Source of the DNA: Edaphobacter aggregans
GTDB taxonomy: Bacteria > Acidobacteriota > Terriglobia > Terriglobales > Acidobacteriaceae
Length of the DNA: 32,000 nucleotides
Assembly: GCF_003945235.1 (NCBI RefSeq)
Contig: NZ_RSDW01000001.1
Span: forward strand, 3,480,001-3,512,000
Direction of reading: 5' to 3'
Program-made: the position numbers and the translations under genes
In this document: positions 1-16,790 of the stretch, piece by piece
How positions within the stretch are numbered: the first letter of the stretch is position 1
How the letters are laid out: each line of letters begins with the position of its first letter
Notes under the pieces: model-generated
Told to the model about the DNA's origin: nothing
The model's input: only the letters and a program-made list of their open reading frames with translations
Databases searched by the model: none

Positions 1-78
1 GTCGCAGCTCGCTTGAGAGGCTGCTTGTTTTTGAAAGGTATTCTCTTCGCTATCACGTTTGTGCGTGTGTGAGATTTT

Positions 79-1479
79 ATGACAATGCAGCAAGGTAAAT
101 GGGCATCGCTTTGGAACGCGCTTAGCGCCGCGGGAGATTTGTCTGGCCGCTTTGTATTTGGCGCGGAAGCAAGTATCGCTTTGAGCGACCTACTTGCCGG
201 GTCTGCTCTTTATGGTAGAGGTGATGAACTGGGTGGTCGATCCGTTCTTGTTACGACAACGAACCAGTTCACCACGGCCTCGGCACTCATAGAACTGGAC
301 GGCATCGCGCGCCGTATGGTTCTTTGTCCACCAGATTTACCGGTTGAACATCTACCGTACGTCATCGAATCGGCAAATGTCGATGCAATCGTATCCGACC
401 GTACGATACTTGGATTGGATATTCACCGCCCCCTATGCTTCTGTCCGTGCACTCGGAAGATTGTGCCCGAAAATTGTAGTCGGAGCGCACAATACCAAAC
501 GGAATGGATTCTTCTCACCTCTGGTACGACTGGGCTACCGAAACTTGTTGTCCACACATTATCTAGCTTGTCCGGCGCCATTAAGGCCGGCAGTGGTTCA
601 GCAGAACCGACCGTTTGGAGCACGTTCTACGACATTCGCCGTTACGGCGGTCTCCAGATATTCCTTCGCGCTTTCCTTACTGGGACGTCCTTAGTTCTTT
701 CGAGTGCGGAGGAGTCAACGGCAGATTTTCTTGCTCGAGCCGGCTCGCACGGAGTCACCCACATTTCCGGAACACCATGCCAGTGGCGCCGGGCGTTGAT
801 GAGTCCGTCAGCTAATCTTATCCAGCCCAAATATATTCGTTTGTCAGGAGAGATCGCGGATCAGGCAATCCTCAACCATCTGCGATCCTTTTATCCGCAA
901 GCTCGAATCGCGCACGCTTTCGCCTCAACAGAGGCCGGCGTGGCGTTTGAGGTGAACGATGGTATCGCGGGCTTTCCTGCAAGTGCGATAGAGGACACCC
1001 CCGATGTCGAAATGAAAGTTGAGGATCGTTCGTTGTGGATACGTTCAAATCGCACTGCAAGCCGCTATCTTGGCGACCAACCTCCTATCTTGAAAAACGC
1101 GGATGGATTTGTAGACACCCGCGACCTGATTGAATTGCGAGATGATAGATACTACTTCGTCGGTCGGCAGGATGGAGCGATTAACGTCGGAGGTTTGAAA
1201 GTGTACCCCGAAGAAGTGGAGGCGGTTATCAATCGTCATCCAGAGGTTCAGATGTCGTTAGTACGGACGAAAAGGAATCCGATTACGGGTGCGCTCGTCG
1301 TCGCCGACGTAGTTCTGACGGAACAACAATCTGCCAGTCGTGATATGCGTGCACTCCAGGGTGACATCCTACTGCTCTGCCGCGAAACTCTTTCTTCCCA
1401 TAAAGTTCCGGTCGCAATTAACTTTATTCCCGCGTTGGCGGTCACTGAATCTGGGAAACTCGTGCGCCGCAATGCGTAA
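79..1479 (+). CDS. AMP-dependent synthetase/ligase (adenylate-forming acyl-activating enzyme), short 466-aa form
   Basis: ATG-initiated ORF. Motifs: LLTSGTTGLPK (P-loop/A3), AFASTEAG (A5-like), FVDTRDL plus GRQDGAINVGGLKVYPEEVE (A7/A8), C-terminal SGKLVRR (A10 Lys). Stop TAA 1477-1479 overlaps the next ATG at 1472. Confidence 0.85.
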   Translation: MTMQQGKWASLWNALSAAGDLSGRFVFGAEASIALSDLLAGSALYGRGDELGGRSVLVTTTNQFTTASALIELDGIARRMVLCPPDLPVEHLPYVIESANVDAIVSDRTILGLDIHRPLCFCPCTRKIVPENCSRSAQYQTEWILLTSGTTGLPKLVVHTLSSLSGAIKAGSGSAEPTVWSTFYDIRRYGGLQIFLRAFLTGTSLVLSSAEESTADFLARAGSHGVTHISGTPCQWRRALMSPSANLIQPKYIRLSGEIADQAILNHLRSFYPQARIAHAFASTEAGVAFEVNDGIAGFPASAIEDTPDVEMKVEDRSLWIRSNRTASRYLGDQPPILKNADGFVDTRDLIELRDDRYYFVGRQDGAINVGGLKVYPEEVEAVINRHPEVQMSLVRTKRNPITGALVVADVVLTEQQSASRDMRALQGDILLLCRETLSSHKVPVAINFIPALAVTESGKLVRRNA

Positions 1480-2206
1480 TGTAATTGTGACAGGCGGAAG
1501 CCGAGGGTTGGGTCTGGGTATTGCCCGTAAATTGACGGAAACTGGATATCGTGTCATTGCAGTTGCGCGCAAACAAAATGATGAACTCGCGGTGGCAATG
1601 CAGGAAGCCGAAAAAGCGAATCCCGGATCGTTTCACTTCGCGCCCTTTGATCTCGCCGAGATCGAAGGCATTCCTGATTTGATCAAGACCTTGCGGAAAG
1701 ACTTCGGTCCGATCTATGGACTGGTTAATAACGCCGGTTTGAGTTTTGATGGAACTCTTGCCCTTATGCCTGTGTCCCAGATTGAACAACTTCTGCGTGT
1801 AAATACGCTGTCGCCAATTGTGTTCACCAAATATATGGTGCGCTCGATGATGGCTGATGGAGGCGGTCGCATCGTCAATATGGCGTCTATCACCGCCTTC
1901 ACAGGCTATAGTGGCCTCTCGGTGTACGGGGCAACAAAGGCATCGATCATTGGTTTTTCCCGATCTATAGCGCGAGAGGTCGGACGCATGGGAGTAAATG
2001 TGAATTCGGTCGCTCCTGGCTTCATCGAGACCGACATGACTCAGGGCATCAAAGACGAGCAGCGTCAGCAGATTGAGCGCCGCAGCGCCCTGAAACGCCT
2101 TGCGGACATCGATGATGTGGCAAATGCCGTCGAATTTCTTCTCAGCGATCGAGCGAAGAACATTACAGGAACGGTACTTACCGTCGATGCGGGTAATACG
2201 GCATGA
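1472..2206 (+). CDS. Short-chain dehydrogenase/reductase, FabG-like (3-oxoacyl reductase family)
   Basis: MRNVIVTGGSRGLGLGIARKL (TGxxxGxG Rossmann), NNAGL, YGATKAS (YxxxK), C-terminal ITGTVLTVDAGNT. The ORF-track start 1340 lies inside the upstream gene; ATG 1472 gives an 8-nt overlap (ATGCGTAA). Confidence 0.85.
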   Translation: MRNVIVTGGSRGLGLGIARKLTETGYRVIAVARKQNDELAVAMQEAEKANPGSFHFAPFDLAEIEGIPDLIKTLRKDFGPIYGLVNNAGLSFDGTLALMPVSQIEQLLRVNTLSPIVFTKYMVRSMMADGGGRIVNMASITAFTGYSGLSVYGATKASIIGFSRSIAREVGRMGVNVNSVAPGFIETDMTQGIKDEQRQQIERRSALKRLADIDDVANAVEFLLSDRAKNITGTVLTVDAGNTA

Positions 2207-4011
2207 CAGAGGTTCAAACAAATGCTCCAGTCAATGCGAATGGCTCTGCTGCCAAGGCCTGGTTGCGTGCGCTGGAACTGACCGCGCCGATCGCTCGTAA
2301 CCCTAATCGCGTTATGTCCACGGTGATGGAGGACCTGGCTGCGCGCTCGAGCGATGCGCCTGCTTTGCTATCCGACCGAGAGTGTCTGACATATCGAGAG
2401 CTTGCCGAACGTTCAAACCGATATGCCCGCTGGGCACTTAAGCAGGGTCTTGCTAAAGGCGAGGTCGTCTGCCTGTTGATGACGAATCGACCGGAATATT
2501 TTGTCATTTGGCTTGGTATAACAAGTGTCGGCGGTGTGGTTGCGCTGCTCAACACCAATCTTGTTGGTTCTTCGCTGGCACATTGCATCAATATAGTTTC
2601 GCCTAAACATCTGATTGTAGATGGAGAGTTCGTCGATGCGCTGACTACTGCGTTGCCGAGTCTCAGCGTGTCACCCGAGATCTGGGCACACGGCGTCGAA
2701 TGCGCCTCATACCAGCGTATCGATCTCGACATCGAGTACATATCGGGTGACACGTTGAGTCGGGAAGAGCGAAGGCCGTTAACCATCGAAGATCGGGCAC
2801 TTTACATCTTTACCTCTGGTACAACTGGACTACCTAAGGCTGCCAACATCAGCCATGCACGCGTCTTGCAATGGAGCCATTGGTTTGCCGGAATGATGGG
2901 AGCTCAGCAAACAGATCGGATGTACAACTGCTTGCCGATGTATCACAGCATTGGTGGTGTGCTGGTACCTGGTGCCGCTCTCGTTGGTGGCGGTTCCGTG
3001 GTCATTCGCGAAAAGTTTTCGGCTAGCCAGTTCTGGGCCGATGTCATTCGTTGGGACTGCACGATGTTTCAATACATCGGCGAGCTTTGCCGTTACTTAT
3101 TACACGCTGCACCGTCCTCAAATGAGAGAAGCCATCGAATCAGAATGGCTTGCGGCAATGGGTTGGCATCCGAAGTGTGGGAAGACTTTAAGGAACGGTT
3201 TCAAATCCCCCAAATCCTCGAATTCTACGCATCCACAGAAGGTGGCGTTTCTTTATTCAATGTTCAAGGAAAGCCCGGTGCGATCGGACATATTCCGACG
3301 TACCTAGCGCATCGATTTTCGCCACCGCTGGTAGTGTTCGACGTCGAGAAAGGCAAGCCGGTCCGAAATGACGAGGGATTCTGTATTCGCTGTGCTCCCA
3401 ACGAAATCGGCGAGGCGATCGGTAAGGTTGTGAACGATCTATCGAACATAGGCGGTCGGTTTGAGGGTTACACTGACAAGCGAGCATCGAACGAAAAAAT
3501 CCTTCGTGATGTTTTTGAGCTGGGAGATGCCTGGGTTCGCACCGGCGACCTTATGCGGAAAGACGAGAAGGGCTTTTTTTATTTTGTCGATCGTATAGGC
3601 GATACGTTTCGATGGAAGGGCGAGAACGTTGCGACCTCTGAAGTCTCAGAAGCGATTTGTACATTTCCAGGAGTCAAACACGCTAATGTCTACGGGGTGG
3701 CCATTCCAGGGACCGAAGGTCGCGGTGGCATGGCAGCGCTCGTTACCGAACATGAGATGGATCTACCGGCGTTTCGGAGGCATCTGATGAGCCGTCTTCC
3801 AGCCTACGCGCGTCCTTTGTTTCTGCGAATTCGAGATGATATTGAAGTAACTGGAACTTTCAAATATTCGAAAACTGATCTAGTACGTCAAGGATATGAT
3901 CCTGTTGCTATCACAGATGTCGTCTATTTTGACAGTCCCGAGTCGGAGGCGTTTGTTCAGCTCGACAAAGTATTGTACGACCGTATCCAAGACGGCCAGA
4001 TCCGTTTATAA
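2203..4011 (+). CDS. Long-chain/very-long-chain acyl-CoA synthetase, FATP/FadD6-like
   Basis: 602 aa. Motifs: YIFTSGTTGLPKAANISH, EFYASTEG, VRTGDLMRKDEKGFFYFVDRIGDTFRWKGENVATSEV, TGTFKYSK. This architecture is typical of fatty-acid-transport-protein type ligases. ATGA overlap with the SDR stop (2203-2206). Confidence 0.85.
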   Translation: MTEVQTNAPVNANGSAAKAWLRALELTAPIARNPNRVMSTVMEDLAARSSDAPALLSDRECLTYRELAERSNRYARWALKQGLAKGEVVCLLMTNRPEYFVIWLGITSVGGVVALLNTNLVGSSLAHCINIVSPKHLIVDGEFVDALTTALPSLSVSPEIWAHGVECASYQRIDLDIEYISGDTLSREERRPLTIEDRALYIFTSGTTGLPKAANISHARVLQWSHWFAGMMGAQQTDRMYNCLPMYHSIGGVLVPGAALVGGGSVVIREKFSASQFWADVIRWDCTMFQYIGELCRYLLHAAPSSNERSHRIRMACGNGLASEVWEDFKERFQIPQILEFYASTEGGVSLFNVQGKPGAIGHIPTYLAHRFSPPLVVFDVEKGKPVRNDEGFCIRCAPNEIGEAIGKVVNDLSNIGGRFEGYTDKRASNEKILRDVFELGDAWVRTGDLMRKDEKGFFYFVDRIGDTFRWKGENVATSEVSEAICTFPGVKHANVYGVAIPGTEGRGGMAALVTEHEMDLPAFRRHLMSRLPAYARPLFLRIRDDIEVTGTFKYSKTDLVRQGYDPVAITDVVYFDSPESEAFVQLDKVLYDRIQDGQIRL

Positions 4012-4135
4012 ACTTCTGGACTAGTCGATTTGGATCGACGTTTACACGACTAGTAAACAAGAGTGGACTATCTATTTCATAGCAAACAGTTCCTTTGTTC
4101 TAAGCTTCGTTAGCGCCACGGAAGTAGGATGCGAA

Positions 4136-5665
4136 ATGGTCATCGATGAATTCAGGAGCGATTTCGCAAAGATTGAGTCTGAGATAGCGATGGGCCCCAT
4201 CGTGCCCAGTGTGACACCCGAAGAGATTCGGGATCATCTCACGTCTCGCTATAACTTCAAGAAGGCGATGACTCTTGAGGAAGTCATCGTCGATGTAGAA
4301 CAGATGTTAAGAACGTGGCAGGTCCAGGTCACCCATCCACGTTATTTCGGCCTCTTCAACCCGAGCGTGACGCTCGCATCTGTCGTTGCGGAGACCTTGG
4401 TAGCCATGTATAACCCTCAGTTGGCGAATTGGCGAACCTCGCCTGCGGGGAATGAGATCGAAAGGCATACTCTTAGTTGGCTCGCCGCAAAATTTGGCCT
4501 CCCAGCAAATGCCAGTTCAACATTCACGAGTGGTGGGTCGGAAGCCAATCTCTCAGCGGTCGTTGTCGCCTTAACGCGTGCTTTCCCCGACTATGGCGAA
4601 AATGGACTTCGAGATCTTACCGCGTTGCCCACGATCTACGTGACAGCGGAGGCGCATCATTCGTTCAACAAGATCGCGCATATAACCGGACTTGGAAGAA
4701 GGGCTTTGCGCACAGTAGCGACCGACTCATATTTGAAGCTTGATGTTGAAGATCTCAGAAGACGTGTAATAGAGGATCGAAAAATCGGATTAGCCCCCTT
4801 CATGGTGGTCGGCGCCGGCGGGACCACTGCAGCTGGCGTAATCGATCCCTTGACGGATATCGGACGCTTTTGCCAAGAGGAGAATCTTTGGTTTCACGTC
4901 GATGCCGCATGGGGGGGGGCCGCAATACTAGCTGAAAGCCTCAAGCACTATTTCGCCGGAATTGATACTGCAGATTCAATCACGTGTGATGCGCATAAAT
5001 GGTTCTCCGTGCCAATGGGAGCCGGGATGTTCTTCTGCCGTCATCCTGACGCCGTCGCGGAAGCCTTTCGAGCTGAAGTCTCCTATATGCCGAAGAAGAC
5101 GGATGGGTTTGTGGAGGATCCCTACACTACCTCAGTGCAATGGTCCCGCCGTTTTATCGGTTTGAAACTCTTCCTCGCGTTGGCGCAGCAGGGGGAATTG
5201 GGGTATGTCGAGATGATCGAGCACCAGACTCAGATGGGACAGGTGCTGCGCGAATCTCTTGAGTCCTCTGGGTGGCGAATCGTTAATACGACGCCGCTGC
5301 CACTCGTTTGTTTTACGCGGGAAGGACTCGATACCAGTAGGTTCCTCTCAGTTCTGCGAGAACGCCAGATTGTATGGATGTCAGAGGCGCAGCTCGATGG
5401 TACTCCTGTCTTACGCGCGTGTATCACCAGTTTCAAGACTACTGAAACGGATATTCACTGGGTGGTGGATGAGATGAATCGTCTCATCTGTCAAGGTGCC
5501 GGTCAAACCAGTACGAGGCCGGAGTCGGTCTCACCAGCACAGCCCAGACAGGGATGGAAACATGAAACGGGACACGATTGCTATTCACGGCGGCTACAAT
5601 GTAGATCCGACGACCAAGGCTGTAGCTGTGCCAATTTATCAGACGGTTTCTTACGCGTTCGATAG
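4136..5665 (+). CDS. Pyridoxal-phosphate-dependent decarboxylase, group II (fold type I)
   Basis: 509-aa ORF. SGGSEANL, HVDAAWGG and SITCDAHKWFSVPMGAGMFFCR (PLP-lysine motif S-x-x-x-x-HK) fit PF00282-type amino-acid decarboxylases. The last ~55 aa (QGAGQTSTRPESV...FLRVR) are Arg/Ser/Cys-rich, and the final 104 nt of this tail overlap the metY start, so they may not be native C-terminus. Confidence 0.8.
   Translation: MVIDEFRSDFAKIESEIAMGPIVPSVTPEEIRDHLTSRYNFKKAMTLEEVIVDVEQMLRTWQVQVTHPRYFGLFNPSVTLASVVAETLVAMYNPQLANWRTSPAGNEIERHTLSWLAAKFGLPANASSTFTSGGSEANLSAVVVALTRAFPDYGENGLRDLTALPTIYVTAEAHHSFNKIAHITGLGRRALRTVATDSYLKLDVEDLRRRVIEDRKIGLAPFMVVGAGGTTAAGVIDPLTDIGRFCQEENLWFHVDAAWGGAAILAESLKHYFAGIDTADSITCDAHKWFSVPMGAGMFFCRHPDAVAEAFRAEVSYMPKKTDGFVEDPYTTSVQWSRRFIGLKLFLALAQQGELGYVEMIEHQTQMGQVLRESLESSGWRIVNTTPLPLVCFTREGLDTSRFLSVLRERQIVWMSEAQLDGTPVLRACITSFKTTETDIHWVVDEMNRLICQGAGQTSTRPESVSPAQPRQGWKHETGHDCYSRRLQCRSDDQGCSCANLSDGFLRVR
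4911..4919 (+). repeat. G9 homopolymer inside the decarboxylase CDS
   Basis: Sequence gcat-ggggggggg-ccgc encodes W-G-G-A of HVDAAWGGAAIL. It is the longest homopolymer I saw in the window. Confidence 0.9.
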
Positions 5666-6839
5666 CGCCGACCATGCCTCGGCATTGTTCAATCTCGAGG
5701 CTGAAGGATTTCGCTATACCCGTATCGGGAACCCGACTACTGCAGTGTTGGAGCGGCGGGTCGCGGCGCTAGAAGGAGGGCTGGAAGCCCTGTGCGTCAG
5801 TAGCGGACAAGCGGCAGTTAACTATGCGGTTCTCAATGTTTCTCAGTTGGGAAGCAATATTGTTTCGGTTCCGCAACTCTATGGAACTACGCACACCCTA
5901 TTTGCGCACATTCTGCCAAGCCAGGGAGTCATTGTCCGATTCGCGGAGTCGGATCATCCGGAGGCGCTCAAAAAACTAATCGATGACAACACCCGTGCGA
6001 TCTTCTGTGAAAGTGTTGGTAATCCGGCAGGAAATATCTGCGATATCGAGTCGCTTGCTCGAATGGCTCACGAACACGGAGTGCCGCTGATCGTCGATAA
6101 TACGGTTGCCTCACCTATCCTTCTGCAGCCGATTGAATACGGCGCTGACATAGTTTTGCACTCTCTCACAAAGTTCCTGGGTGGACACGGCAATTCGCTC
6201 GGCGGAGCCATCGTCGACAGCGGCAATTTTCCGTGGGGAGACCACGCCTCAAGATTTCCGATGTTCAGCCAACCCGATGCCTCCTATCATGGGCTCGTCT
6301 ACACGGATCACTTCGGGAGAGGCGCCTATTTAGGACGGTGCCGCAGCTTCTACCAGCGAACCACCGGGGCTGTCTTGTCGCCACTGAACGCTTTCCTACT
6401 GCTGCAGGGAATCGAGACGGTCGCGCTACGAGTCGAGCGACACGTTGAGAATGGCAAAAAAGTAGCAGAATTTTTGAGCAATGACCCCAGAGTTAAGTGG
6501 GTTAATTATGCTGGATTTGCCGAGAGCCCTTATTATGCGTTGGCACAAAAATATATGTCCGGCCGCGCCTGCTCACTGATGACCGTTGGAATCATGGGGG
6601 GCTATGAAGCCGCGATTAAATTTCATGATGCATTGAAACTGGTGACCCGCCTCGTCAATCTGGGTGATGCCAAATCGTTGGCCTGCCATCCGGCCTCGAC
6701 GACGCATCGGCAAATGTCGGACGAAGCGAAACGCAGTGCTGGAGTCATGCCGGAGATGATTCGACTCAGCATCGGGATCGAGCACATCGACGACATCATC
6801 GAAGACCTGAATCAGGCACTCAGCGCAACAACATGCTGA
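5562..6839 (+). CDS. metY: O-acetylhomoserine sulfhydrylase / aminocarboxypropyltransferase (Cys/Met-metabolism PLP enzyme)
   Basis: MKRDTIAIHGGY...PIYQTVSYAF...YTRIGNPTT...HSLTKFLGGHGN (PLP Lys)...LGDAKSLACHPASTTHRQ...IRLSIGIEHIDDIIEDL is a classic MetY/MetZ-family signature. ATG 5562 was chosen because homology starts there; the ORF-track GTG 5496 adds a non-homologous leader. Confidence 0.9.
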   Translation: MKRDTIAIHGGYNVDPTTKAVAVPIYQTVSYAFDSADHASALFNLEAEGFRYTRIGNPTTAVLERRVAALEGGLEALCVSSGQAAVNYAVLNVSQLGSNIVSVPQLYGTTHTLFAHILPSQGVIVRFAESDHPEALKKLIDDNTRAIFCESVGNPAGNICDIESLARMAHEHGVPLIVDNTVASPILLQPIEYGADIVLHSLTKFLGGHGNSLGGAIVDSGNFPWGDHASRFPMFSQPDASYHGLVYTDHFGRGAYLGRCRSFYQRTTGAVLSPLNAFLLLQGIETVALRVERHVENGKKVAEFLSNDPRVKWVNYAGFAESPYYALAQKYMSGRACSLMTVGIMGGYEAAIKFHDALKLVTRLVNLGDAKSLACHPASTTHRQMSDEAKRSAGVMPEMIRLSIGIEHIDDIIEDLNQALSATTC

Positions 6840-6932
6840 TCGGTTCCCAATAATTCACGCCAATCTGACAATTTGATCGACCTCTACCCAAGGATCAATG
6901 GCAGATCAAGCAGAGCTTCGCCTGTGGCGCAC

Positions 6933-6961
6933 TTTACATGCGCGGAACATCACACTATAGC
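6933..6961 (+). promoter_or_regulatory. Candidate sigma70-type promoter for the rml-like operon (TTTACA-17 nt-TATAGC)
   Basis: TTTACA at 6933-6938, a 17-nt spacer, TATAGC at 6956-6961, 46 nt upstream of ATG 7008. A GGAGAG Shine-Dalgarno sits at 6995-7000. Pattern match only. Confidence 0.25.
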
Positions 6962-7007
6962 TATCTTCCGGTCTCGATAGTCCCTTTCGCTAACGGAGAG
7001 TACATCT

Positions 7008-7610
7008 ATGCCCTTGGAGTTGGATAGTTCACATCTTGGTGGGGAAGTTGTGGTTATTAAGCCTACAGTTTTGGGCGACGACCGTGGCTTTTTCATGGAA
7101 ACCTACCGCTACGACAACTTCCGAGACATGGGGTTGCCGACCGAATGGGTACAGGACAATCACTCACGTTCATCGAAGGGAGTTCTACGCGGTCTCCATT
7201 TTCAGTGGGATCCTCCAATGAGCAAATTGATGCGGGTGACTCGTGGTGCGGCCTTCCTTGTCGCAGTGGACATCCGAAAAGGATCGCCCACATTAGGCGA
7301 GTGGTTCGGCCTTGAAGTTACAGCAGACAACAAGAAGCAGATATATGCTCCGTACGGATTTGCGCGCGGCTTCTGTGCTCTTACTGATGAGTGTGAAGTG
7401 CAATACAAGTGCACGGGAATTTATAACTCCGGTGCAGAATCGGGAATTTACTACAAGGATCCCGAGATTGGCATTGAGTGGCCAATCACAGATGTCATTG
7501 TATCCACTAAGGATGCTAAGGCACAGTCCCTGAATCAATGGCTTGCCTCGTCACTGTCTGACAACATCGTCTATCAATCTAAATCCGAGTTTGCTGGAGG
7601 GGTGAAGTAA
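7008..7610 (+). CDS. rfbC: dTDP-4-dehydrorhamnose 3,5-epimerase family (RmlC-like cupin)
   Basis: GDDRGFFMETYR, SRSSKGVLRGLHFQ, RGFCALTDECEVQYKCTGIY and the ~200-aa length are typical of RmlC. A good SD precedes the start. Confidence 0.85.
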   Translation: MPLELDSSHLGGEVVVIKPTVLGDDRGFFMETYRYDNFRDMGLPTEWVQDNHSRSSKGVLRGLHFQWDPPMSKLMRVTRGAAFLVAVDIRKGSPTLGEWFGLEVTADNKKQIYAPYGFARGFCALTDECEVQYKCTGIYNSGAESGIYYKDPEIGIEWPITDVIVSTKDAKAQSLNQWLASSLSDNIVYQSKSEFAGGVK

Positions 7611-8618
7611 ATGCGTATTCTTATCGCTGGTGGTGCAGGTTACGTCGGTTCTGCATTGATTCCGCATCTCCTGGATCGGGGTTATACGATCGACGTCGTC
7701 GATTTGTTCTGGTTCGGCAACGACTTGCCGCACTATGTTGGCGTCATTGAAAAAAATATCTTCGACCTGCAAGCGTCCGACTTATCCGGCTATGACCAGG
7801 TTATATTTCTAGCTGGTCTCTCGAACGACCCGATGGCCGATTTTTCACCCGCCAAAAACTTCATCTTCAATGCATCGGCTCCAGCATATCTCGCATACAT
7901 CGCCAAGAAGGCCAAGGTAAGGCGATACATTTATGCGAGCTCTTGCTCGGTGTACGGATACACGGAAAACGAGCTCTTCGATGAGAACTGCCCCGTCAAT
8001 TCGTCCAACCCGTACGGTATCTCCAAGCTACAAGGGGAACGTGCCGTCATGCAGATGGTCGATTCCGAATTCTCTGTCATCGCTCTGAGGAAGGGCACCG
8101 TCTCCGGATACAGCCCACGTATGCGTTATGATTTGCTCGTCAACACAATGTTTAAGTGTGCCATGAAAGAGGGTATGATTCACGTCAACGACCCGGCGAT
8201 ATGGCGTCCTTTTCTCAGCATTGAAGACGCTGTCATGGCCTACACACGCGCCATCGAAGCTAATGAGTCCATCAACGGCATATATAACATCGCCTCCGGC
8301 AATCACACTGTAGGCGAAGTTGCCGATCTCGTTAAATTTGCGGTCGAAGAAGAGTTCGGCCAAAAGATCGCGCTAGACATTAAGCACATCAGAGACGCCC
8401 GGAACTACAAGGTTTCAATCGAGCGGGCCAAAACGATCCTAAGTTTTCATCCACATCATAGTGTCAAGTCCATCGTACGCAGTCTGATCAGCAATATGGA
8501 TAAGTGCGGCGATTGGGACAACCCCAAGTACTACAACATCCATGTTTTCAAGGCTCTTGAGAACCTGACACCGACTGGTACCTATGCGTTTTCCCAGGTC
8601 GCTGGGGGCACTAGGTGA
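7611..8618 (+). CDS. NAD-dependent epimerase/dehydratase (extended SDR), sugar-nucleotide modifying
   Basis: MRILIAGGAGYVGSAL (GxxGxxG), YASSCSVYG, PYGISKLQGE (YxxxK). The ATG directly abuts the rfbC stop (TAA|ATG at 7608-7613). Substrate and reaction cannot be assigned from sequence. Confidence 0.8.
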   Translation: MRILIAGGAGYVGSALIPHLLDRGYTIDVVDLFWFGNDLPHYVGVIEKNIFDLQASDLSGYDQVIFLAGLSNDPMADFSPAKNFIFNASAPAYLAYIAKKAKVRRYIYASSCSVYGYTENELFDENCPVNSSNPYGISKLQGERAVMQMVDSEFSVIALRKGTVSGYSPRMRYDLLVNTMFKCAMKEGMIHVNDPAIWRPFLSIEDAVMAYTRAIEANESINGIYNIASGNHTVGEVADLVKFAVEEEFGQKIALDIKHIRDARNYKVSIERAKTILSFHPHHSVKSIVRSLISNMDKCGDWDNPKYYNIHVFKALENLTPTGTYAFSQVAGGTR

Positions 8619-9475
8619 AAGTTGCCGTGCTGGGATCTAATGGACAACTTGGGAGCGATGTGTGTGCAGCCTTTCTACGGAATGGAGATCAAGTTATTGG
8701 TCTCACTCACTCGGATTTTGAGGTGACTTCGGCTTCCTGCGTCGATGCAGTGCTTTCCGCTTCCATGCCGGAGTTCATCGTCAATACGGCAGCGATGCAC
8801 CATGTAGAGAAATGCGAGGCTGATCCCATTGGCGCATTTCACAGCAATGCAATTGGTGCGAAGTTCGTGGCCGAATGGGCGAAACAGGCCGGCGCAACGG
8901 TAGCATACGTGAGCACTGATTATGTCTTCGATGGCAAGAAAGATGCTCCGTACTTGGAAATCGACTCTGCTGTCCCGCTCTCTGCTTACGGAATTACCAA
9001 GCTGGCGGGAGAACACTTTACTGCCGCAATCGCTGCGAAGTACTTCGTGCTTCGCGTTTCTGCCATTTATGGCCATCACCCATGCCGAGCAAAGGGTGGT
9101 CTCAACTTCGTCGAGTTGATGCTAAAGTTATCTCGCGAGCGAGACGAATTGCGCGTTGTTGATGATGAATTTGTCACACCGACTTCCACTGTACAGATCG
9201 CAGAGCAACTAATTGTGCTCAGTCGCTCGCGGCACTACGGCCTCTATCACGGAACCGCCGAAGGAAGCTGCTCGTGGTATGAGTTTGCTCGTGAGATCTT
9301 CCGTGCCACAGGCACCAGAATTCGCTTAGAGAAGGCGCGTCCCGGAGAGTTTCCGACAAAGGTTCCGCGCCCTAAATTCTCCGTTCTTGAGAATCAGGCA
9401 CTGAAAGCTGCTCATTTGAACGTGTTTACCGACTGGCGGGATGGATTGGATAGTTATCTCCGTACCCGCGCTTAG
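8615..9475 (+). CDS. rfbD: dTDP-4-dehydrorhamnose reductase family (RmlD-like)
   Basis: MKVAVLGSNGQLGSDV, NTAAMHHVEKCEADP, VSTDYVFDG, YGITKLAGE. GTG start overlaps the upstream stop (GTGA, 8615-8618). Confidence 0.85.
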   Translation: MKVAVLGSNGQLGSDVCAAFLRNGDQVIGLTHSDFEVTSASCVDAVLSASMPEFIVNTAAMHHVEKCEADPIGAFHSNAIGAKFVAEWAKQAGATVAYVSTDYVFDGKKDAPYLEIDSAVPLSAYGITKLAGEHFTAAIAAKYFVLRVSAIYGHHPCRAKGGLNFVELMLKLSRERDELRVVDDEFVTPTSTVQIAEQLIVLSRSRHYGLYHGTAEGSCSWYEFAREIFRATGTRIRLEKARPGEFPTKVPRPKFSVLENQALKAAHLNVFTDWRDGLDSYLRTRA

Positions 9476-9519
9476 TTCCAGTTAGCACGCGTAACAGGGT
9501 GGAAGGGGTTGTTGGCAGC

Positions 9520-10809
9520 ATGAGCGACAAATATTGCGATGTTGCCATTATTGGAGCCGGTATCATTGGGCTCGCGGTTGGTTTGCAACTCATTCGCAAG
9601 GATCCGAACCTGAAGATCATTGTTCTCGATAAGGAAAATGAAGTAGCTTCTCATCAGACGGGACATAATAGTGGTGTGCTGCATTCTGGCTTGTATTACA
9701 AGCCAGGTTCGCTCAAGGCGCGGCTCTGTGTTGAGGGCAGGGCGGCCATGATTCAGTTTTGCGAGGAGCACGCGATACCGTACGAGATCTGCGGCAAGAT
9801 CATCGTTGCAACCGAAGAACACGAGATACCTAGTCTCAATGAACTGTTGCGCCGCGGACGGACGAATGGCGTATCTGGCCTACGGGAGCTGGACGCGCAG
9901 CAGATTCATGAGATCGAGCCTCACGCATCGGGCCTACGCGGTATCCATATACCGACTACTGGTATCACTGACTTCAGAATGGTCTCGGCCAAGTATGCGG
10001 AGCTTATCAAGCAAGGTGGAGGCGAGGTTCTTACTAACTCTGGTGTCTCGCGCATTTTGTCTGAGGTTGGTGGGATCGTTCTTGAGACTTCTTTCGATGT
10101 CATACACGCGCGTTTCGCCGTCAACTGCGCAGGTTTGCAGAGCGACCGCATCGCTAGCATGGCTGGCGCCAGTCTTGGTCTTCGCATTATACCGTTCCGG
10201 GGCGAATACTTTGAGCTCGTGCCTGCGAAGCACCATCTCATCAAAGGCCTAGTGTATCCGGTTGCCGATCCCCGCTTTCCATTCTTGGGAGTTCATTTCA
10301 CCAAGCGAATTCACGGAGGTGTCGAAGCGGGTCCGAATGCGGTGCTCTCGTTCAAACGCGAGGGATATGCCCGAACGTCATTCAACCTCTCAGACACGCT
10401 CTCGACGGCTTTGTTCCTGGGTTTTTGGAAGATGGCCTCTCAGAACTGGGAATATGGGATGGAAGAAATCTACCGTTCTTGGAATCGGCAGGCGTTTACG
10501 CGCGCGCTGCAGAAGCTGTTGCCGAGTTTGACGGAGCAAGACATTCAGCCTGGAGGCTCGGGTGTACGTGCTCAGGCGTTGGATCATGACGGAAATCTAT
10601 TGGATGATTTTCATTTTATCTATCAGGATCGAATTCTCCACGTTTGCAACGTGCCTTCTCCGGCAGCCACAGCCTCTTTGTCGATCGGTAGGGAGATTGC
10701 TTCAATGCTCCATGGGCATGCTGCACTCAAAAAAGTGGAGCTTGTTGTTAAACAGGAGATAACATCGGCAAAAAACCTGGCTTCGTTGGCATGTCCCGAG
10801 AGCACTTAG
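9520..10809 (+). CDS. lhgO: L-2-hydroxyglutarate oxidase/dehydrogenase (FAD-dependent, LhgO/YgaF family)
   Basis: DVAIIGAGIIGLAVG (FAD GxGxxG), HQTGHNSGVLHSGLYYKPGSLKA, PFRGEYFEL, DPRFPFLGVHFTKRIHGGVEAGPNAVLSFKREGY and GVRAQALDHDGNLLDDF...CNVPSPAATASLSIG match my recollection of E. coli LhgO along the whole length. ATG 9520 is preferred over GTG 9499. Confidence 0.85.
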   Translation: MSDKYCDVAIIGAGIIGLAVGLQLIRKDPNLKIIVLDKENEVASHQTGHNSGVLHSGLYYKPGSLKARLCVEGRAAMIQFCEEHAIPYEICGKIIVATEEHEIPSLNELLRRGRTNGVSGLRELDAQQIHEIEPHASGLRGIHIPTTGITDFRMVSAKYAELIKQGGGEVLTNSGVSRILSEVGGIVLETSFDVIHARFAVNCAGLQSDRIASMAGASLGLRIIPFRGEYFELVPAKHHLIKGLVYPVADPRFPFLGVHFTKRIHGGVEAGPNAVLSFKREGYARTSFNLSDTLSTALFLGFWKMASQNWEYGMEEIYRSWNRQAFTRALQKLLPSLTEQDIQPGGSGVRAQALDHDGNLLDDFHFIYQDRILHVCNVPSPAATASLSIGREIASMLHGHAALKKVELVVKQEITSAKNLASLACPEST

Positions 10810-11358
10810 ATATGAAGGCGTGAGTGGCTTACCGGTGAAACTCCTCTTTCCCAAAAGTTCCAGCCGTAAATCAACTTGAGTCCTCTGCAACTAAATCGGC
10901 ATCATTTTTTACCTGTGTCGCCGGTGCTACCCGCCGATAACATATGCACTTTATTGTTAGGTCGAATGCAAAGACCTGCAACCTAGAATCACGCACGAAA
11001 GACTGCGCAAGTAGCCAAGCGATAATTTTCGCGAAATCAGAAATGAAATACCTTGATCATGTTTAGGAATGCCGCCATTACTATGGCCATCATCGTGCAA
11101 GCTAAGCGTATGTAGATCGACATTCGAAGTCAGCGCGGCCGAGTAAGGAATGTAGCCCACAGGGCAAAGCTATGTCTACTTGGACTGAATGTTGGATCAG
11201 GAAGAGCACAGCCAGTAACTATAGGTGGGTAAAGCGCCTATTGCTGAACTTTATAGGCCCAGCAATAAAGTACGTCTTTGCCCAGACTCCAATCACCGTG
11301 GCGCCCGATTGCAAATTTCTGGTGTCGAATCCCTAACCATTGAAAGAAAGGTGAAATT

Positions 11359-12033
11359 ATGAACACGACGCTACTCATGCCGCAGCAGCCGCAGAACCAT
11401 GTGCTCGACGCCTCCATCCAACAGCAGATCAATGCCATGATTGATGGCCTTATGGCTTCGTTGCCTGAAATGAGTCAACTGACCAAAGCTGAGCGGCGAG
11501 GGATAATTGCGCGATATACCGCAGTTCTGGAAGGAAATTTCATCTATTGGATGACGGCCACCCTTCTTGCCGTGCAGTCAGAAGATGCGCGCCCAATCCT
11601 CCTTGATAATCTCAACGAAGAAGTGCGCGATTCCCATCCGGTCATGCTGCGCAATTTCGCGGTTGCCGCCCAGGCTTTCCCGACAGACTCCGATGCGTTA
11701 GCCGTGAATGAAGAGTTAAATAGCGTCCGTCGCTTTCTGGGTCGGCTTTCCGCCGTGCAGTCGCTTCTGACAATGGCTTTCTTCGAAGGGTTCATACAAC
11801 GGTTTATGGCTTATTTGGCGGATCTTGCCAAAGCACAAGGCTCAGTTGATATGGAATACACAGATGTGCACGGTGTCTGCGATATTGCGCATACTGACGG
11901 TCTCTTCCGTGCACTTTCTATTGAGATGACTCTCAACCCGCTTGAACCGGAGAAAGATCTCTTCGAAGGCGTCTATCTCCTTCGCACCCTCATCGAGACC
12001 GTCGTCTTCAACCGGGACACACCCTCTGCCTGA
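11359..12033 (+). CDS. Heme-oxygenase-like diiron oxidase/oxygenase (HDO) candidate; iron-containing redox enzyme family
   Basis: 224 aa. Putative ligands: E87/E88...H93 (LNEEVRDSHPVML), E143 (MAFFEGF), H171-x3-D175-x2-H178 (DVHGVCDIAHTD). AAAGGTGA Shine-Dalgarno lies before ATG 11359. Assignment is by motif pattern only. Confidence 0.65.
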   Translation: MNTTLLMPQQPQNHVLDASIQQQINAMIDGLMASLPEMSQLTKAERRGIIARYTAVLEGNFIYWMTATLLAVQSEDARPILLDNLNEEVRDSHPVMLRNFAVAAQAFPTDSDALAVNEELNSVRRFLGRLSAVQSLLTMAFFEGFIQRFMAYLADLAKAQGSVDMEYTDVHGVCDIAHTDGLFRALSIEMTLNPLEPEKDLFEGVYLLRTLIETVVFNRDTPSA

Positions 12034-12057
12034 TCATTTCTACCGGGGGCATCTCAA

Positions 12058-12873
12058 GTGCAGACCCAACTTCATCAAGAGATCAGCTTGCCAGAGCAGG
12101 CCGGATACTTCACGGTCCCCGGTGCGGAGCTTTACGCAGTCCTGCATCAGGTTCCGGATCCGGTGGCGCGCGTTCTCCTCGTTGGACCATTCGCCTCCGG
12201 GCGGCATTTTTCATATCACCCATGGGTTCGCTGGGCCCGATATCTGGCCGCGAGGCGGATCGAAGTCCTTCGCTATGATTATCGCGGTATTGGCGAGAGC
12301 ACGGGTGTTTTCGAAGAAATGAGTTTTGAGAACTGGAGCGAAGACGTCCAACTTCTTGCCGATTGGGTCATACGCCGGTCGCCCAGCGTCCCGCTTGTGC
12401 TCCATGGGCTCGAACTAGGAGCCATACTCGCCGCCAGATGTTTCCATAAGGGCACAGGCGATGCATTGCTACTGTGGTCTCCGCCTGCTAATGCGAACCA
12501 GGCACTCCGTTCGAGCCTCTTGTACTGGGCGGGGTTGGGACAATTAAACGAGTCTCCCGAGAACCGGAAGACAGTCTCGGAATATATCCGGCAATTAGAA
12601 GAGGGTTCTTTTATCGAAGTACAGGGATATCAATGGTCGAGTCGTCTGTGGCGCGACTCTTTTCACTTTGACTTGCCCGCGACCATGAGAGATGAAAGCT
12701 CTTGCGAATCATACAAAAAGCCAATCAAGGTAATTAAGCTTGGAAAAGAGGCTGCTCCTCTGGTGAAGTCGCATTTTGGGAATGGCGAAGCTAGGGACTT
12801 CAGCTGCCTATACTCCAGTAATTACGACTGGATTGCCGGAGCCTTAGCCCTCTCGCACAGGGGGATGCAATGA
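12058..12873 (+). CDS. Alpha/beta-hydrolase-fold protein with atypical nucleophile elbow G-L-E-L-G (resembles exosortase-A-associated hydrolase 2, from memory)
   Basis: GTG start, with no in-frame ATG until residue 88. VLLVGPFASGRH...RYDYRGIGESTG...PLVLHGLELGAILAA shows alpha/beta-hydrolase topology, but Glu119 (nt 12412-12414) occupies the position where the GxSxG serine is expected. Confidence 0.65.
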   Translation: MQTQLHQEISLPEQAGYFTVPGAELYAVLHQVPDPVARVLLVGPFASGRHFSYHPWVRWARYLAARRIEVLRYDYRGIGESTGVFEEMSFENWSEDVQLLADWVIRRSPSVPLVLHGLELGAILAARCFHKGTGDALLLWSPPANANQALRSSLLYWAGLGQLNESPENRKTVSEYIRQLEEGSFIEVQGYQWSSRLWRDSFHFDLPATMRDESSCESYKKPIKVIKLGKEAAPLVKSHFGNGEARDFSCLYSSNYDWIAGALALSHRGMQ

Positions 12874-13766
12874 AAGAAACGATTGAAACACGTGAGTTGA
12901 TCGTGCTGGATGGTCTCGACGTCACTATCCGAGGCACCTATCATAAGACCTACGATGACAACCTAGCCGCACAGTCAAACCCGGTCGCGCAACCCCGCAT
13001 CGGGGTTTTGTTCCTGAATTCTATTTCGCCGACGAGAGCTGCGCATGGCGATGCGGCGGTTTATTGGGCCGACTCGTTTGCGGAGTGTGGCTATCCGTCC
13101 TTTCGACTTGATCTGCCAGGATTCGGAGACTCCGAAGGAGATCTTCCAGAAGATTTGGCTGGCTTTATCAACCAAGGGGGGTATGCATCCATTGTCTCCG
13201 CTAAGGTCAGAGAGCTTGTGGCTCGATTCAACCTATCGGGAGTAGTCATAGTGGGTCAATGCGCAAGCGGTGTCTCGGCACTTTATACGGCCGCCGCCTC
13301 GCCAAAGTGCAAAGGCCTTGTTTTGATGGACCCATACTTCTACTTGCCACAAGCAAAACGGCCAGTGATTCGACGGGAATGGGGTACTTGGTTTTTACAT
13401 AGTCGTCGCCAGTTTTCGAGTATTGTTTATGATCGTCTGAAAAGGATTGGCTGTTTTCTCCGCGGGGGAGACCTGCCGAAGAATGCCAATTATCTACTTC
13501 TTAGTTCCTGGAAGAAACTGACGCCCAAAGGATTGCCGGTTCTTATCCTAAAGGGGCCCGACTGTAGAACTCTCAACATGAAACCGAGGGCTGGTGAGTT
13601 CGACTACTTAGAGTATCTTCTGAAAGTTGCAGGTCGCGGAAGTAAGGTCGTCGTAAAAGTGACGAATAGCGCCAATAAGGCTTTCGTGAACCATCAGGGC
13701 CGAGTTGCGGTTCGGCAGCATACTGAACAGTGGCTAAATGCCTATTTCCCATTGGTAAAGCCTTGA
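12870..13766 (+). CDS. Alpha/beta-hydrolase-fold protein with Cys at the nucleophile position (resembles exosortase-A-associated hydrolase 1, from memory)
   Basis: IGVLFLNS...RLDLPGFGDSEG...VVIVGQCASGVSALYTAA...GLVLMDPYF...LPVLILKG...VTNSANKAF...QHTEQWL. Cys131 (nt 13260-13262) sits at the elbow. Lys270 (nt 13677-13679) sits where the family His (G-A-D-H-x-F) is expected. ATGA overlap with the upstream stop. Confidence 0.65.
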   Translation: MKETIETRELIVLDGLDVTIRGTYHKTYDDNLAAQSNPVAQPRIGVLFLNSISPTRAAHGDAAVYWADSFAECGYPSFRLDLPGFGDSEGDLPEDLAGFINQGGYASIVSAKVRELVARFNLSGVVIVGQCASGVSALYTAAASPKCKGLVLMDPYFYLPQAKRPVIRREWGTWFLHSRRQFSSIVYDRLKRIGCFLRGGDLPKNANYLLLSSWKKLTPKGLPVLILKGPDCRTLNMKPRAGEFDYLEYLLKVAGRGSKVVVKVTNSANKAFVNHQGRVAVRQHTEQWLNAYFPLVKP

Positions 13767-13841
13767 GACCACCTTGCATACCGGCACGACAAATATTAGA
13801 AGGCACAACGAACTTCGTTCTATACCTTTTGTGTTGGAGTT

Positions 13842-14259
13842 GTAGCCGATTGCAATACGGATCGACATAGTTTTGTGCTTAGCCATCGTCGATAGTGGCA
13901 ATTATTCCGTAAAAGACGACGGCAGAATTTTGAGCAATGATTCCAAGTTAAGTGGGTCGATTATGTTGGGTTCGTCGAAAGTCCTTATCATGCATCGGCA
14001 CAAATATATGGTGGCTACTCGCTAATGGCTGTAGGGATCACGGGGCTACGAAGCCAGCAGTTAAATTTCATTTTGCGTTGAAGCTGGTGGCACGGTTTGT
14101 CAATCTGGTGACACCAAATCGTTGGTCTGCCTCTGCCTCGACGACGCATCGACGAATGTCGGATGAAGCGAAACGCAGCGCCGAAGTCATGGCTCGGGAT
14201 CGAACACTGCGACGATATTATCGCCTGATCTGAATCTGGCGCTCAACGCAACCGTGTAA
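13842..14259 (+). pseudogene. Decayed duplicate of the 3' half of metY (internal deletions, frameshifts)
   Basis: Hand alignment to metY 6128-6839 in the same orientation. gccgattgcaatacggatcgacatagttttg matches gccgattgaatacggcgctgacatagttttg. agccatcgtcgatagtggcaatt (13881-13903) matches agccatcgtcgacagcggcaatt (6206-6228). gcagaattttgagcaatga matches gcagaatttttgagcaatga (6464-). cctcgacgacgcatcgacgaatgtcggatgaagcgaaacgcag matches cctcgacgacgcatcggcaaatgtcggacgaagcgaaacgcag. Equivalents of ~6161-6205 and ~6247-6463 are missing. The 93-aa ORF 13952-14233 retains ...STTHRRMSDEAKRSAEVM (metY: STTHRQMSDEAKRSAGVM). Confidence 0.8.
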
Positions 14260-14310
14260 ATAAATGATCGTTACAGAATACCCTGATGCCGATTTTCCGA
14301 GGGTACACTT

Positions 14311-15375
14311 ATGCCTATTTGTTCGAGTTCTAGTCGTTTCGTTCATGACCGGCGGTCAGGCAGCAACACGCCTGCGGAATGCCGGGAACGGTCGAGTAAG
14401 TGCGTCACAATCGGATTGATCAATAACATGGCGGACGGGGCTCTCGATGCAACAGAGCGCCAGTTTATTTCGCTTCTCGATTCGGTTTCCGATGACATAC
14501 AAATTAGACTATCGTTTCATGCGTTACCTAACGTTCCCAGGAGTGAGCTAGGTACAAACCATATCAAAAATTTCTATTCGAGTGTCGAGAGTCTTTGGGA
14601 TAAGAGCCTTGACGGACTCATAGTGACCGGCAGAGAGCCTCTCGCATCGAATCTGAAGGATGAACCTTACTGGGATAGTTTTACAGAAGTCCTTGAGTGG
14701 GCTAAGGAAAACACTTACTCGACCATCTGGTCTTGCCTGGCCGCGCACGCTGCGCTATTGCACATAGATGGGATCGATCGTGTCAGGAGCAACGATAAAT
14801 TCTGCGGTATCTTCGAGTGTGCCCGGCTGTCAGATCACCCCCTGACGACAGATGCGCCGTCGCGCTTCAACCTTCCACACTCCCGGTGGAACGGCATACC
14901 TGAAGACGCTTTGACAAGTTGTGGATATAGCATACTCACGCGAGCGGCGGATGCCGGCGTTGATACGTTCGTAGGGCGGCACAAAAGCCTCTTCGTCTTT
15001 TTTCAGGGTCACCCAGAGTACGAATCCAATACGTTGCTGCTTGAATACCGCAGGGATGTTGGGCGTTACCTCCGTGGAGAGACAAATATCTATCCACTGA
15101 TGCCGCGAAGCTACTTCGATCACAGGACTGTGATTGCATTGAAGGCGCTTCAAAACGAAGCTACGTCCCGCCCACGCGTAGACTTACTCGCGGACGTCTC
15201 TGCTGCATTAGGAAAGTCAAAAATCGAAAACACCTGGTACTCAACAGCTGTATGCATTTACCGAAACTGGCTGGAGTATATATGTGCGCAGAAGCAGCTA
15301 CGATTGAAAGACAGATCTCTATCCTGTCAACGCCCGCGAAATCTGGTATGGCCGCACCAGCGACTAAGCTTCTGA
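14311..15375 (+). CDS. metA: Homoserine O-acyltransferase (MetA/HTS family; succinyl versus acetyl specificity not decidable)
   Basis: [56 protein letters not shown] (active-site Cys context), [27 protein letters not shown]. The C-terminal ~25 aa ([25 protein letters not shown]) overlap the next gene. Confidence 0.85.
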
Positions 15376-16790
15376 TCAATAATCGCTGGGTTGCAAGTGA
15401 ATCCGGCGACACCTTCGCGACGGTAAATCCCGCCACCGGCGAGGAAATCTGCCAAGTTGCTGCGGCTAATGCCATCGATGTGGAGAAGGCCGTTTTTGCA
15501 GCGCGGACGGCTTTTGAAACAGGTCCTTGGCGGAAGATGCACGCATCAGAGCGGGGGCGCCTGCTCTACATTCTTGCCGATCTGATCGAAAATAATGCTG
15601 ACGAACTCGCCCAGCTCGAATCTCTCGATAACGGTAAACCAGTTTCAGTGGCGAAGAGAGTGGATGTTGCCAAGACAGTTGCTTGCTATCGATATTTCGC
15701 GGGATGGGCGGACAAGATTCAGGGCAAAACCATTCCCATTGACGGCGATTTTTTTTGCTACACCCGGCATGAACCCATCGGCGTAGTCGGACAAATCATC
15801 CCTTGGAATTATCCCATGCTGATGCAGGCGTGGAAGCTTGCCCCGGCGTTGGCCACAGGAAATACCGTCGTTATGAAGCCGGCCGAGCAAACCCCTCTCT
15901 CCTCGCTACGCATCGGGGAATTGGTTGTTGAAGCGGGTTTTCCGGAAGGCGTCGTCAATATATTGTCGGGATTCGGTCCCACAGCAGGTGCGGCGATCGC
16001 GCGTCACATGGACGTGGACAAGGTGGCATTCACCGGATCCACCGAAATTGGGCGTCTAATCTTGGAAGCCGCAGCAAAGTCCAATCTGAAGCGAGTCACT
16101 CTTGAACTCGGCGGAAAAAGCCCGAATATCGTATTCGAGGATACGGATCTCGACGAAGCGGTAGAAGGCGCGCACTTGGGACTCTTTTCCAACCAGGGTC
16201 AAATTTGTTGTGCCGGTTCAAGAGTGTTCGTCGAAGAGAAGATCTATGATCAGTTCGTAGAAAAAAGTGCGACTCGTGCCCACAAACGTGTAGTCGGAGA
16301 CCCGTTCGATCCTAAGACAGAACAAGGTCCGCAGGTAGATCAGGCGCAGTTCGACAAAGTGATGGGCTATATCGAATCAGGACAAAGTGAAGGTGCTACG
16401 CTTGTCTGCGGTGGCAAGCGCGTCGGACATCGTGGCTACTTCATCGAGCCCACCGTGTTCGCCGACGTTCAGGACGACATGAAGGTTGCCCGCGAAGAAA
16501 TCTTCGGACCGGTGATGAGTGTCATCCCGTTTAAGAATCTCGATGAAGTAATCACTCGGGCAAACCGAACGGATTACGGATTGGCAGCAGGGGTGTGGAC
16601 ACGAGACATCAAAAAGGCGCACGCGATTGCAAATGGAGTGCGCGCTGGTACGGTATGGGTGAATTGCTACAACATTTTGGATACTCGGGCTCCCTTCGGT
16701 GGATTCAAACAGTCAGGAACGGGACGTGAACTAGGCGAGTACGGACTGCAGCAGTATTCGGAAGTTAAAACCATCATTGTCAGGCTTTGA
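15282..16790 (+). CDS. NAD(P)-dependent aldehyde dehydrogenase (ALDH1/2-like)
   Basis: [60 protein letters not shown] (catalytic Glu), [13 protein letters not shown] (catalytic Cys), EEIFGPV. Start is uncertain: ATG 15282 has GGAG 5 nt upstream, whereas ATG 15348 (MAAPATK...) would give a shorter 28-nt overlap with metA. Confidence 0.9.

Follow-up and report, generated by a model that had tools for sequence, protein, structure and literature searches.

The homoserine O-succinyltransferase family gene metA of Edaphobacter aggregans is directly preceded by a decayed piece of the O-acetylhomoserine sulfhydrylase gene metY, and the intact metY gene of the same genome lies 7.5 kb away from metA. 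How did one locus come to hold a functional and a dead copy of metY on the two sides of a block of seven genes, and was this block brought in from elsewhere or does it belong to the locus? The question was addressed by computational analysis of a 32,000-nt stretch of the E. aggregans genome, referred to here as the window, together with the corresponding loci of related Acidobacteriaceae. The features of the window that are relevant to the question are collected in Table 1.

Table 1. Features of the metY-metA region, in window coordinates
Feature	Position	Strand	Basis or remark
Spacer upstream of amp1; its first ~28 nt are the end of the duplicated ACP 3′ fragment	1..78	+	
amp1 (AMP-binding), sdr, amp2 (AMP-binding), PLP-dependent decarboxylase	79..5665	+	Pfam; order same in all relatives
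Intact metY (O-acetylhomoserine sulfhydrylase)	5562..6839	+	TIGR01326, PF01053
metY direct repeat, left arm, inside the intact gene	6124..6839	+	blastn
metY-rmlC join region	6840..7007	.	6939-7007 is conserved rmlC-upstream sequence of relatives
rmlC, NAD-epimerase, rmlD, lhgO	7008..10809	+	Pfam, NCBIfam; breakpoint near 10775
X2, conserved non-coding element upstream of hdo	10921..11206	+	Decayed direct repeat of X1
hdo (haem-oxygenase-like), hyd1, hyd2 (alpha/beta hydrolases)	11359..13766	+	Canonical hdo-hyd1-hyd2 spacing
hyd2-remnant spacer	13767..13840	.	Presumed left deletion edge, from gene order
metY 3′ pseudogene remnant, right repeat arm	13841..14259	+	blastn, blastx, alignment, tree
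Native metY-metA spacer, 51 nt	14260..14310	+	Alignment and spacing in relatives
metA (homoserine O-succinyltransferase family) and aldh, canonical overlapping junction	14311..16790	+	Pfam, NCBIfam

A decayed metY copy beside metA

Both genes of interest are assigned with scores above the model cut-offs: the intact metY reaches 598 bits against TIGR01326 (cut-off 495), and metA (14311-15375) reaches 385 bits against NF003776 (cut-off 358). The start of metY is uncertain and may lie at 5496, 5562 or 5628. The longest reading frame, which begins at 5496, overlaps the decarboxylase gene by 170 nt, and the gene calls of conspecific contigs place the start at window position 5628 (403 aa). Within the block between the two metY copies, a gap of 550 nt separates lhgO from hdo.

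Comparison of 13767-14310 with 5400-6950 by blastn aligned a main block, 13922-14252, with metY positions 6465-6829 (271 of 367 identities, or 74%, with 38 gap columns; E = 3e-62). Two short blocks, collinear with the main block and upstream of it, match metY 6124-6158 (13841-13875, 86%) and metY 6206-6234 (13881-13910, 90%), each with E = 5e-5. The computed alignment confirms what a preliminary description of the window had claimed from an alignment made by hand, namely, that 13842-14259 is a collinear, decayed copy of the 3′ part of metY, and the two aligned arms bear out its further statement that direct repeats of metY flank 6840-13840. The copy, hereafter the stump, lacks the first ~560 nt of metY and, internally, the equivalents of ~6159-6205 and ~6235-6464; these are the gaps that had been placed at ~6161-6205 and ~6247-6463.

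In blastx, the homology of the stump is spread over three reading frames with in-frame stops, and the copy is therefore non-functional, as had been supposed. Significant homology to the metY family (PF01053/TIGR01326) combined with disabling lesions, i.e., 5′ truncation, internal deletions, frameshifts and stops, makes it a pseudogene of that family. The stump ends at 14259 with GTG TAA, in alignment with the metY stop position of the related loci L002 and L004. In the 3′ flank of the intact metY, homology to the native spacer is gone within ~30 nt, as judged by eye. The stump of metY beside metA is, in short, a real feature of the genome.

Gene order in related Acidobacteriaceae

Loci of relatives were obtained by a genome scan and a metagenome scan with metA, complemented by exact-protein look-ups, which together gave 40 contig segments (L001-L044, four of which are repeats of contigs already present). 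Conspecifics aside, the sampled relatives are no closer than about 82-91% amino-acid identity. The look-ups with the decarboxylase and sdr proteins returned conspecific metagenome contigs only, and those with the amp1 and epimerase proteins returned zero matches.

In every locus of other Acidobacteriaceae that holds both genes (27/27), metY is directly followed by metA after 18-70 nt, which supports the earlier suggestion that the remnant abuts metA as its native partner; the 7-kb block is absent from between metY and metA in these relatives. The stop of the stump is separated from the metA start (14311) by 51 nt, a distance inside the range of relatives, and the end of the stump and the spacer align with the end of metY and the spacer of relatives. 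Therefore, it is the remnant together with metA that represents the original junction.

The order seen in relatives is hdo-hyd1-hyd2-ACP-amp1-sdr-amp2-decarboxylase-metY-metA (e.g., L002, L015, L018, L038 and L040), with aldh next after metA wherever the contig extends that far. ACP denotes an 81-aa carrier-protein gene with an LDSL motif, which abuts amp1 in all relatives carrying it. Some relatives (L001, L004, L012 and L039) have rmlC-epimerase-rmlD-lhgO downstream of metA. All genes of the E. aggregans block (rmlC, epimerase, rmlD, lhgO, hdo, hyd1 and hyd2) are found in the same neighbourhood of relatives, in a different order and with 51-92% amino-acid identity to their counterparts, and in E. 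aggregans neither hdo-hyd1-hyd2 nor the rml block occupies its usual place. Six contigs of the same species, with 97-100% amino-acid identity, share the order of the window. Among the loci obtained, this order is restricted to conspecifics, and all of these loci are already fully reduced. The locus L040 has an upstream flank in common with E. aggregans (GT2, methyltransferase, flippase and hexapeptide acetyltransferase genes; 67-78% amino-acid identity), and the closest hdo, hyd1 and hyd2 are also those of L040 (83, 82 and 71%, respectively).

Another order, ACP-X-hdo-amp1, in which X is the conserved non-coding element described below, is present in L039 (Tunturiibacter lichenicola) and L001. 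In the latter, a 3′ fragment of ACP precedes amp1. This order, together with the fragment, suggests an earlier round of duplication and loss in that clade. In L001, ACP is reduced to two fragments, one 5′ and one 3′ (1107-1205 and 3094-3198), with X and hdo between them, and neither hydrolase gene is present; decay of the cluster seems to be under way in this genome.

It should be noted that several of the genes concerned belong to a set conserved in Acidobacteriaceae, which comprises a haem-oxygenase-like protein, two alpha/beta hydrolases, the 81-aa carrier, an AMP-ligase, an SDR, a second AMP-ligase and a group II PLP decarboxylase. The set is always located beside metY-metA and downstream of polysaccharide genes (window 79-5665 and 11359-13766; L040 9526-18245; L038 10001-19361). 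Its hydrolases match the models of 'exosortase A system-associated' hydrolases weakly, with 66 and 40 bits (cut-offs 203 and 168). The set may constitute a putative polysaccharide or lipid modification pathway. Directly upstream of hdo, L040 encodes an 89-aa PP-binding protein (9526-9795) with no sequence relationship to the 81-aa ACP, so that the cluster includes two carrier proteins in some of its versions.

Origin of the rearranged order

We consider it likely that the stump is the leftover of a tandem duplication of the organism's own cluster, which was followed by complementary losses from each copy. The ancestral order would have been hexapeptide acetyltransferase-ACP-X-hdo-hyd1-hyd2-ACP-amp1-sdr-amp2-decarboxylase-metY-metA-aldh, and the segment from X to the end of metY would have been duplicated in tandem in the E. 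aggregans lineage. Copy 1 would then have lost hdo-hyd1-hyd2 and the 5′ part of ACP, leaving X1, the ACP 3′ fragment and the genes from amp1 to metY. Copy 2 would have lost ACP, the genes from amp1 to the decarboxylase, and the first ~560 nt of metY; it would have kept X2, hdo-hyd1-hyd2, the metY stump and the untouched metA-aldh, and 13767-13840 would hold the left edge of its deletion. From the moment that each copy was the only holder of certain genes, collapse of the duplication would have been impossible, and the rearranged order would thereby have become fixed. The rmlC-lhgO block at the join of the two copies would be the product of an extra event, and the stump would afterwards have decayed neutrally.

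The observed arrangement corresponds closely to this scheme. The order in the species is ACP, X1, ACP fragment, amp1 to metY, rml-lhgO, X2, hdo-hyd1-hyd2, stump and metA-aldh, so that the genes assigned to copy 1 (ACP, amp1 to metY) are followed by those assigned to copy 2 (hdo, hyd1, hyd2, metA and aldh), and the order of the window is exactly one duplication-and-loss shuffle of the order of relatives. Leftovers are found at the predicted places: the stump between hyd2 and metA, X1 and X2 before each half, and the ACP 3′ fragment before amp1. The junctions of copy 2 are canonical (24 nt between hdo and hyd1, 51 nt between the stump and metA, and an overlap between metA and aldh). Such junctions could not be regenerated by chance, and therefore the parts of copy 2 were never separated. 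The spacer between hyd2 and the remnant, 13767-13840, yielded no homologue.

The region upstream of window position 1 was read from 98%-identical conspecific contigs, not from the genome of the window itself; a window position equals the position in the conspecific contig L035 minus 5865. Upstream of amp1, L035 carries the hexapeptide gene, an intact ACP, ~340 nt, X1 (5418-5697, or approximately -447 to -168 in window terms), ~140 nt, and the ACP 3′ fragment (~5833-5893), of which 5851-5893 (window -14 to 28) is 86% identical to the 3′ end of ACP in L040. Remains of hdo, hyd1 or hyd2 were sought in the 860 nt that precede amp1 in L035, with no significant match. X1 and X2 are decayed direct repeats with 61% identity over 296 nt (E = 3e-8); the motifs of X2 include TGGCCATCATCGTGCA (11084-11099) and GTAGCCCACAGGGCAAAGCTATGTC (11152-11176). 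The element also lies upstream of hdo in L001 (1788-2021) and L039 (9571-9809), and its core motif alone is present in L005 (732-756). X is confined to these three loci and E. aggregans and does not occur upstream of hdo in canonical loci.

Three motifs of X are nearly invariant: TGTGCAAGACCCTGCAA, TGGCCATCATCGTGCT and GTAGCCCACAGGGCGAAGCTATGTC. The second of them, TGGCCATCATCGTGCT, fits a predicted sigma-54 -24/-12 promoter. A loose pattern of the sigma-54 type has 7 matches in the window vs 2.4 expected, and the pattern alone is therefore not specific. X was also considered as a structured RNA, a candidate rejected on finding no Rfam family and no covariation. The X1, X2, L001 and L039 versions are about equally distant from one another (53-59% identity), with star-like quartets (6:9:10); therefore, X does not confirm duplication within the E. 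aggregans lineage.

The position and age of the stump were assessed with a neighbour-joining tree, i.e., by a distance method only, from 420 aligned columns of 18 sequences. In this tree, the stump and the intact metY of E. aggregans (window and L035) form a group with 98% bootstrap support, which is nested in a 97% clade with L001, L010, L039 and L038. The stump is thus sister to the genome's own functional metY, as expected of a paralogue born within the lineage. A 2-nt indel at the stop, common to the intact metY and L001 and absent from the stump, is in mild conflict with the tree.

Identity between the stump and the window metY is 0.82, 0.81 and 0.70 at codon positions 1, 2 and 3, respectively; the corresponding values are 0.79, 0.82 and 0.61 for the stump and L001 metY and 0.94, 0.94 and 0.68 for the window metY and L001 metY. 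The decay of the stump is nearly equal at all codon positions. Three-taxon Jukes-Cantor estimates give the stump branch ~0.19 substitutions per site at positions 1+2 and ~0.26 at position 3, vs ~0.03 and ~0.13 for the intact branch. These branch lengths indicate that the stump was inactivated soon after the duplication and has drifted neutrally since. As a rough estimate, the age of the duplication is ~60% of that of the split from the L001 lineage.

The stump is still decaying and shrinking within the species. Thus, 112 nt of the window (13841-13952) are absent from six conspecific metagenome contigs, and 7 nt (ATGCCCG) at ~14007 are kept in the six conspecific contigs and lost in the window strain. 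Within-species substitutions amount to 2.3% in the stump; in the neighbouring genes of the locus, they amount to 0.55% at codon positions 1+2 and 4.4% at four-fold sites. At sites polymorphic within the species, no signal of gene conversion between the stump and the intact metY was found, the stump agreeing with the window allele at 7 sites and with the L035 allele at 11. Divergence between the window and L035 varies along the locus: 1251-5750 contains 2 differences in 4.5 kb, with sdr, amp2 and the decarboxylase gene identical, and 5751-13840 diverges by ~4%, with 11% at the four-fold sites of metY. This pattern indicates that a tract bordered near 5750 has recently recombined.

The rml-lhgO block has a history of its own. 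In L012, L004, L014, L001 and L039, rmlC-epimerase-rmlD-lhgO interrupts aldh, of which a 5′ fragment (~aa 1-28) is left between metA and rmlC and decayed pieces are left after lhgO (in L012, the pieces around the block lie at 10100-10420 and 14450-14940). In E. aggregans aldh is intact; therefore, the block reached the join by a separate event. On the rmlC side, 6939-7007 matches L012, L004 and L014 (74-81%, E = 1e-6), and 6840-6938 has no detectable homologue; in a search of the latter for remains of metA, the aldh 5′ end and the metA-rmlC spacer, scores were no better than those of shuffles. On the other side, the last codons of lhgO (10773-10809) are replaced by ~11 codons (KNLASLACPEST) for which L001 and L012 offer no equivalent, which indicates that the native stop was replaced at a rearrangement breakpoint near 10775. 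The same four-gene block occupies different sites in different lineages.

Several observations count against the tandem duplication. The rml-lhgO block at the join needs the extra event just described, and the stop-codon indel groups the intact metY with L001 and not with the stump. None of the loci shows the proposed ancestral arrangement, in which X-hdo-hyd1-hyd2 is flanked by ACP on either side: in L040 the upstream ACP place is taken by an unrelated carrier-protein gene, and L039 and L001 have ACP-X-hdo, but with the hydrolases at a different position. No intermediate with two fuller copies is present among the 40 contig segments. Other explanations therefore have to be weighed.

The preliminary description had regarded the HDO and hydrolase genes as accessory and acquired, either by Campbell-type integration of a circle carrying a metY fragment and cargo or by the landing of an island with its own metY in the resident gene. 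The geometry of a single crossover (intact gene, block, 5′-truncated copy, metA) does fit a foreign element integrated at the resident metY, and the block is absent from this site in relatives. However, the supposed cargo consists of conserved members of the neighbourhood in relatives that are gone from their usual place here. All seven block genes are thus native to the neighbourhood, and hdo and the hydrolase genes belong to the core of a cluster conserved in Acidobacteriaceae and are not accessory. The composition of 6840-13840, whose comparison with the flanks had been proposed, is typical of the window as well: the tetranucleotide distance of 0.0112 falls within the range of all 7-kb windows (0.0093-0.0134), GC is flat, and GC3 is similar to that of the rest of the window. 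Searches of all window ORFs of at least 150 aa with Pfam and NCBIfam revealed no integrase, recombinase or transposase, and the window has no tRNA and no Rfam match. Moreover, the length of the repeats and their identity of only 74% set them apart from att sites, and the stump is sister to the resident metY. Self-comparison of a conspecific contig revealed no metY 5′ fragment within ~11 kb upstream of the intact metY, which argues against the landing of an island. A foreign origin is accordingly very unlikely in our opinion, and is largely refuted by these data. Since tandem duplication and Campbell reintegration of a circle from the same locus give the same local picture, the first of the two earlier models was right in its geometry and wrong on the origin of the cargo.

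A less distant source deserves more weight. The second copy may have come from a closely related strain or species with a different arrangement of the same locus, one end having been joined by homology (in metA/aldh or further downstream) and the other illegitimately near the end of lhgO, with the same complementary deletions afterwards. Such a merger would explain an intact copy-2 aldh beside the rml block that breaks aldh in relatives, it predicts the truncation and extension of lhgO at ~10775, and it agrees with the stop-codon indel that sets the stump apart from the intact copy and L001. The locus is, furthermore, a mosaic: hdo, hyd1, hyd2 and the upstream polysaccharide genes resemble those of L040 far more than those of L039, and amp1 to metY are about equally close to both. 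Within the species, recombination is active here (1251-5750 is nearly identical and its flanks are ~4% different). The mosaic identities together with the patchy divergence indicate that recombination with relatives is frequent at this locus. Nevertheless, the 98% grouping of the stump with the organism's own metY would require the donor to be an unsampled, very close relative, or else an early gene conversion, and neither metA nor the aldh 5′ end could be recognised in 6840-6938; we therefore judge a merger unlikely. An L002-like donor was entertained because hdo is 82% identical to that of L002 vs 74% to that of L001, and was given up when the hdo support proved weak with more taxa and the stump grouped with the resident metY. 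Far less probable still are two or more independent local transpositions without duplication of the whole cluster, e.g., of hdo-hyd1-hyd2 and the rml block, each into the metY-metA spacer, with a metY patch copied by repair synthesis. Mobility of this kind could be read from the different sites of the rml-lhgO block in different lineages and from the shifted position of hdo in L039 and L001, but it leaves unexplained why the stump starts mid-gene directly after hyd2, why X precedes both halves and why an ACP 3′ fragment precedes amp1, and it takes more events than one duplication with deletions.

Tandem duplication and complementary loss would also bear on the expression of the cluster. Somewhat doubtfully, we suggest that the locus is a legible end state of this process in a free-living bacterium, that the process here split one operon in two, that X carries the predicted promoter of the cluster, and that the presence of X before each half is what permitted the complementary losses. 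In that event X1 would drive amp1 to metY to lhgO, X2 would drive hdo-hyd1-hyd2-metA-aldh, and the transcriptional partner of metA would have changed from metY to the hdo and hydrolase genes.

Comparison with known systems

Integrative elements that duplicate the 3′ end of their target in the Campbell manner likewise produce an intact gene and a truncated 3′ copy as direct repeats around a block. Their repeats are short and exact, whereas those of E. aggregans were originally >700 nt long and are now 74% identical. Unlike such elements, the E. aggregans block has no integrase, its cargo is native to the locus in relatives, and its composition is native; a block flanked by repeats of a gene is thus not necessarily an island. 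Homology-facilitated illegitimate recombination, with one homologous and one illegitimate junction, could likewise set a diverged second copy beside a resident one. Contrary to what that process leads one to expect, the stump is sister to the resident metY, and no donor lineage was identified.

With regard to direct sulfhydrylation, metY and metA of E. aggregans exceed the cut-offs of TIGR01326 and NF003776, as expected of this pair. The two genes are adjacent in all relatives examined, and in E. aggregans metA now follows hdo-hyd1-hyd2 and a dead stump.

Bacterial gene order changes fast, and the route of a change is rarely visible because the intermediate steps are erased. A tandem-duplication/random-loss model has been used for mitochondrial genomes. 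Analogously, in the SNAP model, duplication and losses from different copies lead to a rearranged order, and its authors mentioned, as a trace that may be left behind, pseudogenes whose active counterpart is still present (Brandis and Hughes 2020, PMC7055797). The E. aggregans locus is like both in that complementary loss locks the duplication and leaves all genes single-copy and in a new order. Some differences should be noted. SNAP invokes positive selection, for which the E. aggregans locus gives no evidence. The unit is small compared with SNAP, ~10 kb before the rml block and inside one gene cluster; unlike the SNAP scheme, the locus has a further block where the two copies meet; and the event lies far back in time, the stump having accumulated ~0.2 substitutions per site. 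The mechanism is of a known kind, and its scars are unusually well preserved. Three kinds of leftover occur in one locus and the old order persists in many relatives; therefore, the locus can be used as a worked natural example of duplication and complementary loss, of which there is still a need according to the authors of SNAP (PMC7055797).
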